64,000 nt of DNA. Source: Candidatus Saccharimonadota bacterium. GTDB taxonomy: Bacteria > Patescibacteriota > Saccharimonadia > Saccharimonadales > Saccharimonadaceae. The position numbers were made by a program, and so were the translations under genes. The notes below the pieces were generated by a model. That model did not search any database, was not told the DNA's origin, and saw nothing but the letters and a program-made list of their open reading frames with translations. This document shows, one piece after another, positions 26,487 through 55,638 of the stretch; within the stretch, counting starts at the first letter, position 1; every line of letters begins with the position of its first letter. The stretch covers positions 13-64,012 of the forward strand of contig JAFWHN010000005.1 of NCBI GenBank assembly GCA_017515205.1, read 5' to 3'.

Positions 26487-28249
26487 TGGCAACGCTTACC
26501 AAGGAAGCTGAGGAAAGAATCATTAACCTCCTCCTAACAGAGGGGCTTGCTGACCAGAACTTGGTACTTGCCATTAAACAAAAAGCCGAGAACGAAAACA
26601 AACCCGCCCTAGCTGAGCTGATTGATAAAAAAATCATTAGTGATGATATGGTAGCACGTGCTACCGCTGCCATCATCGGTGTTCCCTATGTTGAACTCAA
26701 AAATATTACCATCGATCAGGATGTTCTATCCAGAGTTCCTGCAGAAGCATCTACTCGTGTGTTAGCAGTTCCACTCGGTGAAAAAGATGGCATGCTTAAC
26801 ATTGCCATGGTTGATGTCACCAACGTCCAAGCCACTGATTATCTCTCTAATCTCATTAACCAGCCCTTGCGAGTCTGGATGTCGTCCGAACGTGGCATTC
26901 GTGAGATGCTCGAGCAGTATCATGGCGATTTTTCTGGCGTTAAAGATGCCGTCAAAGAAACCAATGAAGAAGAAGCTGAAAGGGAACAGCGTGACGTTAA
27001 AACAATTGTTCAGGACTCCCCTATTTCTAAAGCTCTGACTACTATTCTAAGTTATGCCGCCAAGACCAAAGCTTCTGATATTCACATCGAACCGCTCGAA
27101 AACTCTCTCATTATTCGTTGTCGTATTGATGGCGTATTGCGCAAAATCATGGAGCTCCCTAAAACCGTTGCTCCTGCTCTAGTTTCTCGTATTAAAATTC
27201 TTAGCAATCTTAAAATCGATGAGCACCGCGTCCCACAGGATGGCCAGTTCACCGTTTTAGTAGACGATCAAGAGATTGATCTTCGTATCGCAATTTCTCC
27301 AGTTACTTGGGGCGAGCAAGTTGTTATTCGTTTGCTTGATAAAACTGGCGTTTCGATGGAAATTGAAAAGATGGGTATGACTGGCCGTGCTCTTCGCGAT
27401 GTCTTAGAGGGCATTAAAAAGCCAAATGGTATGATTCTTACTTCTGGTCCTACTGGTTCTGGTAAATCTACCACTCTCTATGCTCTAATTCAAAAGATTA
27501 AGTCCGAAGAGATCAATATTGTGACTCTAGAGGATCCAGTTGAGTATAAAATGGACGGCATTAATCAAATCCAGGTTAATGTGGATGCTGGTTTAACCTT
27601 TGCTTCTGGTTTGAGGAGTATTCTTCGTCAAGACCCAGACGTAGTAATGGTGGGCGAGATTCGTGATTCCGAAACCGCTGGTTTGGCTGTACAGGCTGCC
27701 CTGACTGGACACCTTGTCTTTAGCACCCTTCACACCAATTCCGCTGCTGGTATTTTGCCACGTCTCCTCGATATGGGCATCGAACCATTCCTGCTTGCTT
27801 CTACCTTGAACGTTGTGATTGGCCAACGCTTGGTACGTCGCATCACCGAAAAAAGGGAAATGTATAAATCCTCCGAAATTGAGACCAAAGGTATTAATGA
27901 AATAGTTGGTGATCTTTTGCCAAAGGATAAAGAAACTGTTGCTAAAGTCAGTGAAGATTTGGGTTATCAAGGTCTACCAGTTGAAAATGACGATCACTAT
28001 ATGTTAGCTAAAGGTGTCAATTCAAAAGAAACTCCAGGTGGCTACAAAGGCCGTGCTGGTCTATATGAGACTATTACCGTAGATGAAGAAATTCAGAAGC
28101 TTATCATTAACCATTCTACTGCCAATGAAATTATGCGTCTTGCGAAGGAAAAAGGTACCGTCACTATGCGTCAGGACGGTATATTAAAAGCTCTGTCGGG
28201 CATTACAACAATAGAGGAGGTAAACCGTGTAGCAAGCGATCTCTCGTAA
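26486..28249 (+). CDS. pilB: Type IV pilus extension ATPase
   Basis: ASDIHIEP, GPTGSGKSTT, LRQDPDVVMVGEIRD, STLHTN. Confidence 0.95.
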   Translation: MATLTKEAEERIINLLLTEGLADQNLVLAIKQKAENENKPALAELIDKKIISDDMVARATAAIIGVPYVELKNITIDQDVLSRVPAEASTRVLAVPLGEKDGMLNIAMVDVTNVQATDYLSNLINQPLRVWMSSERGIREMLEQYHGDFSGVKDAVKETNEEEAEREQRDVKTIVQDSPISKALTTILSYAAKTKASDIHIEPLENSLIIRCRIDGVLRKIMELPKTVAPALVSRIKILSNLKIDEHRVPQDGQFTVLVDDQEIDLRIAISPVTWGEQVVIRLLDKTGVSMEIEKMGMTGRALRDVLEGIKKPNGMILTSGPTGSGKSTTLYALIQKIKSEEINIVTLEDPVEYKMDGINQIQVNVDAGLTFASGLRSILRQDPDVVMVGEIRDSETAGLAVQAALTGHLVFSTLHTNSAAGILPRLLDMGIEPFLLASTLNVVIGQRLVRRITEKREMYKSSEIETKGINEIVGDLLPKDKETVAKVSEDLGYQGLPVENDDHYMLAKGVNSKETPGGYKGRAGLYETITVDEEIQKLIINHSTANEIMRLAKEKGTVTMRQDGILKALSGITTIEEVNRVASDLS

Positions 28250-28270
28250 TGCTCATGGTATAATAAAACT

Positions 28271-29350
28271 ATGGAAAATAACGCTACAAATACACTTAAA
28301 ATTGAATCGTTACTTGAAGAATGCGTCCGACGTGATGCTTCAGATTTACATATTCAATATGGTCTGCCACCGATTTTACGTATTGATGGTGTTCTTACAC
28401 CAATTGCTGGCACGCACGCCTTGAACGAGAATGATCTCAAAAATCTCATTTTTGCTACTCTCGACGAAGATCAGCAAAAGATTTTGATTAAAGATAAAGA
28501 ATTTGATTATTCGTTTGCCTTTGGTGATATCGCCCGTTTCCGGGTTAACGCCTTCCATGAACGTGGTAAACTGGCTGCCGCTTTTCGTTTGATTCCTAAT
28601 AAAATCAAGAATATCAATGATCTTGGCATGCCTAGCATTGTTGAGACCTTTGCTGATTTTCCGCGTGGCTTAGTCCTCGTTACCGGCCCTACTGGCTCTG
28701 GCAAGTCTACGACTCTAGCAGCTCTTGTAGATAAAATTAATCACGAAAAATCTACTCACATTATTACTATTGAGGATCCTATCGAGTTTACTCATAAATC
28801 TGAGCGTTCTGTCATTGTCCAGCGTGAAGTGCATTATGATACCTTTAGCTTTGCTGCCGCGCTCCGTTCAGTGCTACGTGAAGACCCAGATGTAGTTCTA
28901 ATTGGTGAGATGCGCGATCTAGAGACCATTCAGGCCGCCATTACTATTGCGGAAACTGGTCACTTGGTATTTGCTACTCTTCACACCAATTCTGCTGCTC
29001 AATCTATTGATCGTATGGTAGATGTCTTTCCATCCCATCAACAACCGCAAATTCGCACTCAGCTTTCCAACATGTTGATGGCTATCTGTGCCCAACGTCT
29101 AGTTCCTGCCATCGGTGGTGGTCGTGTGGTGGCTGCCGAAATTATGGTTGCAAACTCCGCTATTCGTACTTTGATTCGTGAAGGTAAAACTCATCAAATT
29201 GATACTGCAATTCAGACTGGTGCCGACCAAGGCATGCAGACTATGGATCGCACTCTAGCTAAGCTTGTTCAAACCGGTGTTATCACCTATGATTCCGCCC
29301 GCGAGTTCGCTGTAGATCTCAATGAATTAAACAGGTTAGTAAAGGGCTAA
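28271..29350 (+). CDS. pilT: Type IV pilus retraction ATPase
   Basis: ASDLH, GPTGSGKSTT, LREDPDV, ETGHLVFATLHT, GMQTMD. Confidence 0.96.
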   Translation: MENNATNTLKIESLLEECVRRDASDLHIQYGLPPILRIDGVLTPIAGTHALNENDLKNLIFATLDEDQQKILIKDKEFDYSFAFGDIARFRVNAFHERGKLAAAFRLIPNKIKNINDLGMPSIVETFADFPRGLVLVTGPTGSGKSTTLAALVDKINHEKSTHIITIEDPIEFTHKSERSVIVQREVHYDTFSFAAALRSVLREDPDVVLIGEMRDLETIQAAITIAETGHLVFATLHTNSAAQSIDRMVDVFPSHQQPQIRTQLSNMLMAICAQRLVPAIGGGRVVAAEIMVANSAIRTLIREGKTHQIDTAIQTGADQGMQTMDRTLAKLVQTGVITYDSAREFAVDLNELNRLVKG

Positions 29351-29351
29351 A

Positions 29352-30557
29352 ATGAAACGGTTCGATTATAAAGCCAAAGAGAAAAAGACTGGCAAGCTCG
29401 TCAAAGGCAATATCCAAGCTGAAAACGAACAAACAGCCGGCCGGCTTTTGATTGAACAAGGTTATATTCCTCAGAGTGTCACAGAAGAGGGAACTGGTAT
29501 CTTTGGTGGTAAAGGACATATTTCTACCAAAGATCGTATTATGTTTACTCGTCAGCTATCTACTTTGATTGGTGCTGGTCTTCCACTTGCTACTTCTCTT
29601 CGTACCGTTGCTGAACAGACTCAAACTAAAGCCATGAAGTCCGTTGTAGAAGACATTCTTGCCAAAGTTGAATCCGGCAAAACACTATATGATTCATTCT
29701 CTGAATATCCTGACACCTTCAATGGCGTTTATTTGGCTCTTATTAAAGCCGGCGAGACTTCCGGTACTCTGGATTTGGCTTTGAAACGTCTTGCCGATCA
29801 AGAGGAAAAGGATGCTGCTATGCTTAGTAAAATTCGTGGCGCCCTCGTTTATCCAGGGATTATTTTGGGTGTTATTATCGCTGTCCTTGCTTTCATGATG
29901 ATCATGGTTGTCCCACAGGTTAAAGGTCTTTACGAAGATATGGGTCAAGAGCTTCCTGAACTAACTAAAATTTTGGTGGCCATCTCTGATTTCTTTGGCG
30001 CCTTCTGGTGGTTAGTTTTAATTATATTGATTGCTATCTGCGGTGGCATCTATTATGCTGTCAAAAAAACTCCCGCTGGTCGCAAAATTGCTGATACTAT
30101 TAAAATTAATGTGCCACTGTTCGGCGGCCTCTTTAAAAAGCTTTATGTTTCGCGCTTTGCTCGCACTACCGAAATGATGTTGGCCACCGGCGTGCCTATG
30201 CTAGACTCAGTTAAAATCGCTATTGAGGCCACTAGCAATGTCGTCATTGAGGAAGAATATAACAAATCCCTTGATATTATTAAAGGCGGCAAAGCTCTCT
30301 CTGAATCGTTGAAAGATCGTAAATACATGCTCCCACTCGTGCCACAGATGGCTTCCATCGGTGAGGAATCCGGTAAAATTGATGAAATGTTGGGTAAAGC
30401 CGCCACAGTTTACGAAAACGAACTTGATGAACAGATTAACAACATTTCTACTATGATTGAGCCAGTCTTAATGGTTATTATGGCTGGCCTCATTGGCGTG
30501 GTTATTGGTGGCACCTTGCTCCCAATTTACTCGCTAGTTAACTCTATTGCTGCTTAA
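29352..30557 (+). CDS. pilC: Type IV pilus platform protein
   Basis: FTRQLSTLIGAG, AGETSG, GEESG, IEP duplicated T2SSF domains. Confidence 0.95.
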   Translation: MKRFDYKAKEKKTGKLVKGNIQAENEQTAGRLLIEQGYIPQSVTEEGTGIFGGKGHISTKDRIMFTRQLSTLIGAGLPLATSLRTVAEQTQTKAMKSVVEDILAKVESGKTLYDSFSEYPDTFNGVYLALIKAGETSGTLDLALKRLADQEEKDAAMLSKIRGALVYPGIILGVIIAVLAFMMIMVVPQVKGLYEDMGQELPELTKILVAISDFFGAFWWLVLIILIAICGGIYYAVKKTPAGRKIADTIKINVPLFGGLFKKLYVSRFARTTEMMLATGVPMLDSVKIAIEATSNVVIEEEYNKSLDIIKGGKALSESLKDRKYMLPLVPQMASIGEESGKIDEMLGKAATVYENELDEQINNISTMIEPVLMVIMAGLIGVVIGGTLLPIYSLVNSIAA

Positions 30558-54407: not shown

Positions 54408-54845
54408 TTATTGAGCGTAAGCAACGTTTTGCTCCATCGCCTGAGTTTCTAGCGCCGCGAGTCTTTCCGCATCATCAATTGAAGAATTAACACAATGCTT
54501 CACGCGCGCCTTTTCCTCAGCTTTTTTGGCATCGTTCCAGCGGTCCAAAGTACCTACTAGATAACCAGTAATTCGGCGCAGTCTTTCAAATTTCCCTTCA
54601 TCGAACCACACCTCATGTTCGTCAAAGTATTCCTTCATAGCCTTATCGCCAGCTTTTTCACCAATCAACTTCATACCAATCTCCACTAAGCAGGACACAT
54701 GCATCGTTTCATATTGGTCAAACTCTGCTAAAGCTTCTTTGATTTCTTTTTCTGAAACTTTTGCATACTTAGCTAATGATTTTTCAAATCTTTTTAAATC
54801 AAAAGCTTCAGCATCATTCGGGTTCTTATATAAAATTTTCTTCAT
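54408..54845 (-). CDS. Mini NrdD-like protein (ATP-cone-like N-terminus plus glycyl-radical C-terminal segment)
   Basis: FERLRRITGYLVGTLDRWNDAKKAEEKARVKH matches the class III RNR C-terminus; no catalytic barrel. Confidence 0.8.
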   Translation of the reverse strand: MKKILYKNPNDAEAFDLKRFEKSLAKYAKVSEKEIKEALAEFDQYETMHVSCLVEIGMKLIGEKAGDKAMKEYFDEHEVWFDEGKFERLRRITGYLVGTLDRWNDAKKAEEKARVKHCVNSSIDDAERLAALETQAMEQNVAYAQ

Positions 54846-54903: not shown

Positions 54904-54958
54904 ATTCTAACCCCACATATAGTGTTTGTCAAGACTTTTTTAACACTAAATATAGCGT
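54904..54958 (-). promoter_or_regulatory. Sigma70 promoter with two tandem NrdR boxes
   Basis: Minus strand TTGACA-17 nt-TAGAAT; boxes accccacatatagtgt (54910-54925) and acactaaatatagcgt (54943-54958). Confidence 0.8.
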
Positions 54959-54996: not shown

Positions 54997-55638
54997 ATGC
55001 CAAGTTGGAACACTCATTTGGAGGCTGGTTCACGTTTAGCTGACAGGCTCAAACTTTCTGGCGCTAAACGTCAAGAGTTTTTGTTGGGCTGTATTTTGCC
55101 AGACATTAATAATGGGTACATTAATCATGTTGGTGTCAAAAAACACCACCACGAGACTCATTATGCCTACAATGACAAAAGTACCAAAAATTTCTACGCC
55201 GAAAATCAAGCCGAAATTGATGCTAAAAACCCGATTTTTCTCGGCTATCTTTTTCACCTTTATACCGATGGTTATTTCAACCACACTTTTTACCGTGAAA
55301 TTAAAAAATCACCCTTAAGCGCTCAATTACCTAGCGACGAATGGCGCGGCATCAAACACCACGATTTTTGGCTTTACGATACCAAGTTTCGCCATCGACT
55401 CGGTATTAAAAAAACCGAACTTGCTCGTCTTGCCAAATGTGCCAACACCATAAAAGTCATTGAAATTACCCCTCAGGATATCGAAAACGTCGAAAAGGTC
55501 CTCGCCGATGATTCTTTTAATAGCCATATGAAAGGGAACCATTATATTTTTTATGACGAAAATGATCTCGACGATTTATTAGAAGAAACTATCCAAAGTT
55601 TCATCCACGATTATCTCGGAGATTTTCAAAATGCCTGA
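54997..55638 (+). CDS. Zinc-dependent phospholipase-C-like metallohydrolase
   Basis: MPSWNTH, LPDI, HHHETH, GYLFHLYTD. Confidence 0.6.
   Translation: MPSWNTHLEAGSRLADRLKLSGAKRQEFLLGCILPDINNGYINHVGVKKHHHETHYAYNDKSTKNFYAENQAEIDAKNPIFLGYLFHLYTDGYFNHTFYREIKKSPLSAQLPSDEWRGIKHHDFWLYDTKFRHRLGIKKTELARLAKCANTIKVIEITPQDIENVEKVLADDSFNSHMKGNHYIFYDENDLDDLLEETIQSFIHDYLGDFQNA

Follow-up and report, generated by a model that had tools for sequence, protein, structure and literature searches.

A free-standing NrdD-type glycyl-radical protein as a likely second piece of a class III ribonucleotide reductase in Saccharibacteria

A small gene with an NrdD-type radical loop

The window, that is, the whole 64,000-nucleotide stretch of DNA that was analysed, carries on its minus strand a gene for a 145-aa protein, which is located between polA and a 213-aa ORF that is followed by fpg. 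The features of this gene and of its control region are as follows:

54408..54845, minus strand: CDS of the small protein (candidate small subunit), 145 aa, with an ATP-cone-like head, an NrdD-type glycyl-radical loop and a conserved, predicted helical tail
54594..54845, minus strand: N-terminal domain (head), aa 1-84, predicted order b-b-a-a-b-a-a, ATP-cone-like fold
54492..54593, minus strand: glycyl-radical loop, aa 85-118, KFERLRRITGYLVGTLDRWNDAKKAEEKARVKHC, assigned from Pfam NRDD, the alignment with 8p23 and the loops of sister species
54411..54491, minus strand: C-terminal tail, aa 119-145, VNSSIDDAERLAALETQAMEQNVAYAQ, family-specific and predicted helical, assigned from the alignment
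54904..54932, minus strand: sigma-70-type promoter, -35 TTGACA (54932-54927), 17-nt spacer, -10 TAGAAT (54909-54904), 11/12
54910..54925: promoter-proximal NrdR box, ACCCCACATATAGTGT on the plus strand, filling the -35/-10 spacer
54943..54958: distal NrdR box, ACACTAAATATAGCGT on the plus strand, 33 bp from the first box

The start codon ATG of the small ORF is at 54843-54845 and its stop codon at 54408-54410. Residues 85-117 (KFERLRRITGYLVGTLDRWNDAKKAEEKARVKH) are a near-perfect copy of the glycyl-radical loop of class III ribonucleotide reductase (RNR; NrdD), with LRRITGYL at aa 89-96 and RVKH at aa 114-117, and the presumed radical glycine Gly94 is encoded by GGT (complement of 54564-54566). 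The Pfam profile NRDD (PF13597) matched aa 85-117 with its positions 532-562 of 562 (E=1.8e-7), and the score of 30.6 bits was above the gathering cut-off of 26.2. Three NCBIfam NrdD equivalogs also matched, with E values down to 1.8e-12 and over the last ~35 profile positions only. Residues 707-739 of the solved NrdD of Prevotella copri (8p23) aligned with the loop, and the loop was identical to those of the full-length NrdDs of sister species, including Gly94 and RVKH. Judged from these comparisons, the C-terminal match to NrdD is far beyond chance. The original prediction, made from the letters of the DNA, had described a 145-aa ORF with the NrdD loop RRITGYL and RVKH, and this description was exact in its coordinates and agreed with the Pfam and NCBIfam matches; the N-terminal strings quoted in it (EAFDLKRFEKSLAKYA, HVSCLVEIGMKLI and AMKEY) were all found in the translation, and the NRDD search that it proposed is the one that scored above the gathering cut-off.

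Outside the loop, nothing in the small protein matched the NrdD profiles, and NRDD positions 1-531 found no counterpart in it. The small protein alone is without barrel, finger-loop cysteine or Zn ribbon, so it is not a whole NrdD catalytic subunit; the barrel is in a separate 731-aa protein. The earlier title, a class III RNR with the barrel deleted, therefore describes well an architecture that is NrdD without barrel and Zn ribbon. The PFL-type profile PF01228 (Gly_radical) gave no hmmscan match to the small protein at E<=10, and a genome scan with PF01228 also missed the small gene. In the tail, the family alignment showed V119, N120, S121, D125, R128, Q135, N140, A142 and Y143 to be invariant, and the tail helix in the structure model was of low confidence. 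The loop was poorly modelled in isolation (pLDDT <50, residues 96-122). The gene is not a frameshifted piece of an adjacent nrdD, a case that the original prediction had named: it is equipped with a separate promoter, RBS and start, sits in the polA-fpg interval, and has more than 2100 small homologues. Database labels for the family (>2000 members) are 'hypothetical' or the misleading 'anaerobic ribonucleoside-triphosphate reductase'.

The two NrdR boxes are 16-bp palindromes about three helical turns apart, and they overlap the small-gene promoter. This layout of promoter and boxes was kept upstream of the small gene in 27/27 genomes examined, with a similar pair upstream of nrdD; when the 650-kb genome was scanned for tandem NrdR-box pairs, they were found in two places only, namely the nrdD promoter and the small-gene promoter. 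NrdR itself was found in 37 of 41 genomes of the genus. In the source 9-contig assembly, tblastn found neither nrdR nor its usual neighbour ftsZ, and since both are missing, this points to an assembly gap rather than loss, both genes probably being in the roughly 9% that is unassembled. In several genomes nrdR adjoins ftsZ at about 10-15 kb from the small gene. The NrdR homologues of the genus matched TIGR00244 only from about position 10 and mostly scored just under the curated cut-off, and one of them (G422; L097, G422:C4) appears to be without the Zn-ribbon cysteines (…RRRRVTSDGKHRFTTYE…).

The AF2 model of residues 1-84, which was built with 32 family members, had a pLDDT of 87.5 and a pTM of 0.73, with the order b-b-a-a-b-a-a. 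In the Foldseek search with this model, the top 50 PDB matches were all ATP-cone proteins (NrdR, ATP-cone NrdB, NrdD of S. thermophilus and P. copri, E. coli NrdA), with TM of 0.52-0.68 (TMq), probability up to 1.0 and E values of only 0.025-1.7, and the whole-protein model gave the same match list. The ATP-cone HMM PF03477 had no match at E<=10 for the small protein, for the genome locus or for any of the 32 family members, and hhalign of the head against NrdD cones was marginal (P=0.0026-0.019), in register over the hairpin and helix 1; homology to ATP-cones at the sequence level was rejected on these two results. The strand-1 K-R dyad is not conserved in the family alignments, where positions 7-8 are K/R/F/H/S and then N/S/E/D/Q, so that a variable Y-K/R/F/H-N/E/D takes the place of the dyad. 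The head nevertheless matches the ATP-cone domain (PF03477) of NrdR, NrdA, NrdD and NrdB in its predicted fold and secondary-structure order, a beta-hairpin plus a four-helix bundle. Because of the PDB matches, the weak sequence signal and the variable dyad, we call the head ATP-cone-like and consider nucleotide binding doubtful. Thus, the 'degenerate ATP-cone' of the original prediction held at the fold level (pLDDT 87.5, top 50 PDB matches) and not at the sequence level (no PF03477 match, hhalign P=0.003), and its suggestion that the protein is possibly nucleotide-regulated found no support, with no PF03477 match and no conserved K-R dyad.

The truncated NrdD in the same genome

The source genome (650 kb, 9 contigs, 90.7% complete) has a Saccharibacteria-like gene content. 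NRDD matched in two places in it, the small protein (profile 532-562) and a 731-aa ORF (profile 2-529), so the two proteins together cover 2-529 plus 532-562 of the profile. As the original prediction had proposed, nrdD and nrdG were searched for, and they were found together on another contig:

Contig C5 (G000:C5), about 28127-30322: truncated nrdD, 731 aa, directly followed by nrdG

The 731-aa NrdD has a genuine ATP-cone (84.5 bits, the only ATP-cone in the genome), the ten-stranded barrel and the Zn ribbon. It ends with '...DVPFEKVCSCAKGE' (also given as '...CPHCGRLEGDVPFEKVCSCAKGE'), two residues short of the loop, at a point where the full-length NrdDs of sister species read '...DVPFERLRRITGYLVG...RVKH' (also '...CPSCGRLEGDIPFERLRRITGYLVGTLDRWNDAKKAEEKARVKHNV...'). 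Truncated NrdDs stop at FEK(V), and their full-length relatives have FERLRRITGY there. The nrdG gene directly downstream is intact, a 184-aa ORF with CPNHCKGC (radical SAM, CxxxCxxC). PF02867, the profile for class I/II RNR, had no match in the assembly, and the PF01228 genome scan found no PFL-type glycyl-radical enzyme in it. NrdD is therefore the only possible partner of the small protein, and the pair is the only de novo dNTP route found. A second nrdD in the unassembled part of the source genome (the assembly is 90.7% complete) is conceivable, but none was seen in about 49 related genomes, several of which are 97-100% complete.

We also searched the nrdD-nrdG spacer for a remnant of the old loop-coding sequence. 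Local DNA alignments of this spacer from 12 truncated genomes with the 3' ends of full-length genes scored no better than shuffles, and a loop remnant downstream of the truncated nrdD was rejected at this score level. This lack of any loop-coding trace between nrdD and nrdG argues for a clean deletion or replacement and not for a recent nonsense mutation. An apparent 'read-through to position 548' in genome G492 is probably due to chance.

Most of the truncated clade has, after FEKV, a new short Cys-rich tail (C-S/N-C-A-K-G-E/K; in the source genome L001 1447..1470, minus strand). NrdG has a conserved N-terminal extension of ~20 aa (M..DWHQISLxKIAKQLETPDGYIR-) in most truncated-clade species (L001 758..1312, minus strand, which is G000:C5; also L069, L074 and L076), and NrdG of species with full-length NrdD starts with MQIRLSGPLEH. 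The start region of NrdG is remodelled by the same event that removed the loop, and the extension might play a part in the recognition of a free substrate protein.

Distribution, descent and selection

The distribution of both genes was analysed in 101 genomes of the genus (about 100 species) by combining an NRDD profile scan with a scan by a profile specific for the N-terminal domain of the small protein, and it gave the following counts:

NrdD truncated: 50 genomes, small gene in 49/50 (the exception is 72% complete)
NrdD full-length: 48 genomes, small gene in 10/48
No NrdD: 3 genomes, small gene in 0/3

The co-occurrence of truncated NrdD and small gene in 49/50 genomes stems from one clade and is thus one evolutionary event. 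Among 251 sampled genomes of the family, the small protein at full length occurred in just two genera, the source genus and one other, and in this second genus it was always alongside full-length NrdD. A 400-genome sample of the phylum had no small protein elsewhere.

The tree of NrdD (residues 1-722) showed that the truncated proteins form one clade (SH-aLRT 100) with a single state change. This clade branches from within lineages that carry a full-length NrdD and the small gene, as 6/8 species of the neighbouring clade do. Most simply, the small gene would have been there first, next to an intact NrdD, and one lineage would later have lost the cis-encoded loop. In the tree of the small protein, the cellular proteins formed one clade (100/99), and the truncated-clade proteins were monophyletic (99/97) and sister to all other cellular ones. 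This arrangement conflicts with the NrdD tree and makes the sequence of events less clear-cut than that tree would imply by itself. The incongruence may come from acceleration after the small protein became indispensable, or from a separate acquisition, which would fit the different, fixed polA-fpg locus of the truncated clade. We also considered that gene conversion had carried the resident loop into the small gene, and dropped this idea, as nucleotide and third-position identities were non-discriminating because synonymous sites are saturated.

The locus of the small gene in the truncated clade is chromosomal, fixed between polA and fpg and without phage genes nearby, and its context varies elsewhere. 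The two-gene layout was found in about 50 independently assembled species, in several of which the genes are 26-190 kb apart on one contig. The 213-aa ORF between small gene and fpg (window 54997-55638, plus strand) was present in only about 5 of 14 truncated-clade loci compared, and in some species, e.g. G421 and G456, the orientation of the small gene to polA is reversed. One species of the genus has two small-gene copies, G470:C1:68-316 and G470:C4:53476-53724, one of them at a contig start.

The dN/dS values, which are rough because dS is saturated but still far below 1, were 0.026 for the truncated NrdD and, for the small gene, 0.08 in the truncated clade and 0.13 elsewhere; by part, the truncated clade had 0.13 for the head, 0.02 for the loop and 0.08 for the tail, with ranges of 0.13-0.17, 0.02-0.05 and 0.08-0.20, respectively. 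The frame of the truncated nrdD is open in about 50 species. Comparison of the proteins showed that 285 of 294 columns invariant in full-length NrdDs were unchanged in all truncated ones, and fixed differences were none. The truncated NrdD and the small protein are both under strong purifying selection.

The pair as a two-piece enzyme, and other readings

We consider it likely, with a probability of roughly 0.75, that the small protein acts in trans as the obligate glycyl-radical subunit of a class III RNR made of two pieces and that it evolved from a GrcA-like spare part. What the genes themselves give for such a split RNR is the joint profile coverage, the conservation of both pieces and the 49/50 co-occurrence. 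The original prediction had proposed 'an analogous repair subunit or split-RNR subunit'; the split fits the source genome, whose only NrdD is loopless, and repair fits the relatives with full-length NrdD but not the source genome.

We infer that NrdG, as the radical-SAM activase, would place the radical on Gly94 of the small protein, and that the loop would then enter the barrel of the large subunit and generate the catalytic thiyl radical there, which is what the tethered C-terminus achieves in one-chain NrdD. Docking or recognition would be the task of the ATP-cone-like head and of the conserved helical tail, and nrdD and the small gene would be repressed together by NrdR. As for its evolution, this 'barrel-less NrdD' gene would first have coexisted with full-length NrdD as a GrcA-like spare part, a state that would persist in about 20% of full-length species and in the second genus, with relatives in phages, until one lineage deleted the cis-encoded loop and the small protein became indispensable. 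Since oxygen cuts the chain of a glycyl-radical enzyme at the radical glycine, the likely benefit would be that only a 16-kDa protein has to be remade after oxygen damage.

The glycyl radical is the weak point of anaerobic enzymes, and only pyruvate formate-lyase (PFL) has a known replaceable 'spare part' (GrcA/YfiD). A review of June 2026 names formate lyases as the only glycyl-radical enzymes with known spare-part proteins and leaves room for others (PMC13450708), and the same point, with spare parts tied to formate lyases, is made in PMC8683613; there, PFL-AE activates free GrcA/YfiD, which then complements cleaved PFL (PMC13450708, PMC8683613). Neither a split NrdD nor an autonomous radical protein of the NrdD type was described in any paper found by our literature search. 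The nrdD of mammal-associated Saccharibacteria has been described as horizontally acquired, with no mention of the split (PMC7427843, PMC13754049).

GrcA/YfiD of E. coli and Y06I (vs.6) of phage T4 are likewise small, free-standing, C-terminal copies of the radical loop of a large enzyme, and they share with the small protein an extra N-terminal part, phage-encoded relatives and, presumably, activation by the activase of the parent. In 10 species of the genus and in the second genus, the small protein also stands beside an intact parent enzyme; the parent in the source genome is without loop. GrcA/YfiD differs in three ways: its loop is PFL-type, and that of the small protein is NrdD-type (PF13597 tail, no PF01228 match); its N-terminal part is a disordered segment, and the head here is a predicted folded ATP-cone-like domain; and it is a repair part, while the small protein of the source genome would be obligatory, as the parent NrdD has no loop of its own. 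With one-chain NrdD plus NrdG (T4 1H79, E. coli, P. copri 8P23, S. thermophilus 9DCA), the concatenated pair would share the domain order of ATP-cone, barrel, Zn ribbon and glycyl-radical loop, and one-chain class III RNR also has nrdG beside nrdD and NrdR control; the difference here is that a second polypeptide, whose gene is tens of kb distant, bears the loop, together with the extra head and the special tail. The mobE-split NrdA of Aeromonas phage Aeh1 (a split class I RNR) and NrdJa/NrdJb likewise make up a two-gene catalytic subunit that must assemble, but in those cases the two genes are neighbours and the division does not detach the radical-carrying element, whereas here the pieces are unlinked and the detached piece would be the radical cofactor itself. 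NrdJa/NrdJb of Pseudomonas aeruginosa, a split class II RNR, is cited in PMC9669993.

It is unlikely that the small protein is purely a spare part for an NrdD with another radical source, or that the truncated NrdD is a dead relic in a cell living on host-salvaged deoxynucleosides, with the small protein as a leftover. Saccharibacteria are indeed epibionts with minimal biosynthesis (PMC7427843), and a GrcA-like role would be natural where the small family stands beside full-length NrdD, as in 10 species and the second genus. However, the truncated NrdD is not decaying, in view of its low dN/dS, its intact frames and the absence of fixed changes at invariant columns, and nrdG and the NrdR operators are retained. 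We know of no established radical source in class III chemistry besides the C-terminal glycine. The small gene is also far more frequent beside truncated than beside full-length NrdD, which is the opposite of a leftover pattern.

We think it quite improbable that the small protein is a regulator or decoy that titrates NrdG or caps the barrel or ATP-cone of NrdD, e.g. a phage-derived inhibitor or modulator of host dNTP synthesis. Homologues of the same architecture do occur in phage contigs: one of 139 aa (50% identity) is in a 103-kb contig with tape-measure, capsid and terminase genes, and further homologues were found in six IMG/VR viral contigs; the isolated-phage database had NrdD loops only and no full-length homologue. 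The ATP-cone-like head could also pair with the NrdD cone, and the varying context of the small gene in full-length-NrdD genomes would fit such a role. But the loop shows no difference from functional NrdD loops and is under the tightest constraint of all parts of the protein (dN/dS 0.02), which a decoy would not need; selection on an NrdD without glycine loop would be left unexplained, and the gene of the truncated clade is at a fixed chromosomal locus away from phage genes.

An assembly or annotation error, or a rejoining of the pieces by intron, trans-splicing, intein or frameshift, is very improbable, because, although phage nrdD is often interrupted, with fragmented nrdD in IMG/VR contigs and a loop ORF that looks frameshifted in Eggerthella phage EL753P1, the same unlinked layout recurs in about 50 independent assemblies, no loop-coding remnant follows the truncated nrdD, the small gene comes with a separate promoter, RBS and start codon and encodes a head of 84 aa that is predicted to fold, and no intein or intron signal was seen.

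For the two-piece RNR, the one genus is a natural experiment with three states, i.e. NrdD alone, NrdD plus the small protein, and loopless NrdD plus the small protein. These states make it testable whether the activase charges a free NrdD-type loop, whether a detached loop drives ribonucleotide reduction, and what the role of the head is. The matter bears on how oral and gut Saccharibacteria, whose only RNR is NrdD, tolerate oxygen fluctuation. Phages carry NrdD-loop modules as auxiliary genes, and the viral members have tails (GxYTxxEK...) similar to the one found after RVKH in Saccharibacterial full-length NrdDs, which fits an origin by internal deletion of such an nrdD. A wider reading, which we offer tentatively, is that there is an as yet undescribed family of autonomous glycyl-radical proteins belonging to class III RNRs, which would have originated as a 'barrel-deleted NrdD' (ATP-cone, loop and tail), possibly in Saccharibacteria phages, would serve as exchangeable radical cartridges, and would in one clade have ended up as the only carrier of the radical in an RNR that needs both subunits; the degenerate head would then dock on the true NrdD ATP-cone, so that the ATP/dATP state gates radical delivery.

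Most NrdD-type loops in the viral contigs are within small ORFs, among them the second loop family and the mini ORFs described below, so detached NrdD loops are not confined to Saccharibacteria. In the cultured Eggerthella phage EL753P1 (OP172808.1, L105; 3741-7170), the nrdD annotated as containing an intein terminates just past the Zn ribbon, and a small ORF about 400 nt further downstream encodes the loop (FERIRRI / TGYLTGSADRWNDAKKAELRDRVKH), with a change of frame within the motif; a group I intron between nrdD and loop ORF was considered and rejected, with no Rfam match. A second stand-alone family of NrdD loops, of about 86-105 aa and with another head (…EEIxxYVxYVxxKxPGRxIxxLxIxxDGEYVDLEYxL…FERIRRITGY), was found in viral contigs and in uncharacterised metagenome contigs away from nrdD, at P0152 (L096 4409-4711), P0223 (L102 1371-1661), L112, L125-L128, L137, L138, L152, L159 and L160; at L112 the loop ORF immediately precedes an nrdD whose match ends at residue 716. 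IMG/VR contigs also contain mini ORFs of 46-65 aa with little beyond …GEGVxFERIRRITGYLVGT.DRWNDAK.AE..DRVKH (L135, L136, L139, L143, L148-L151; L122, L123, L130, L131, L146, L147, L156, L157, L167), some of which lie 100-900 nt after a truncated or fragmented nrdD and others with no nrdD within 10 kb.
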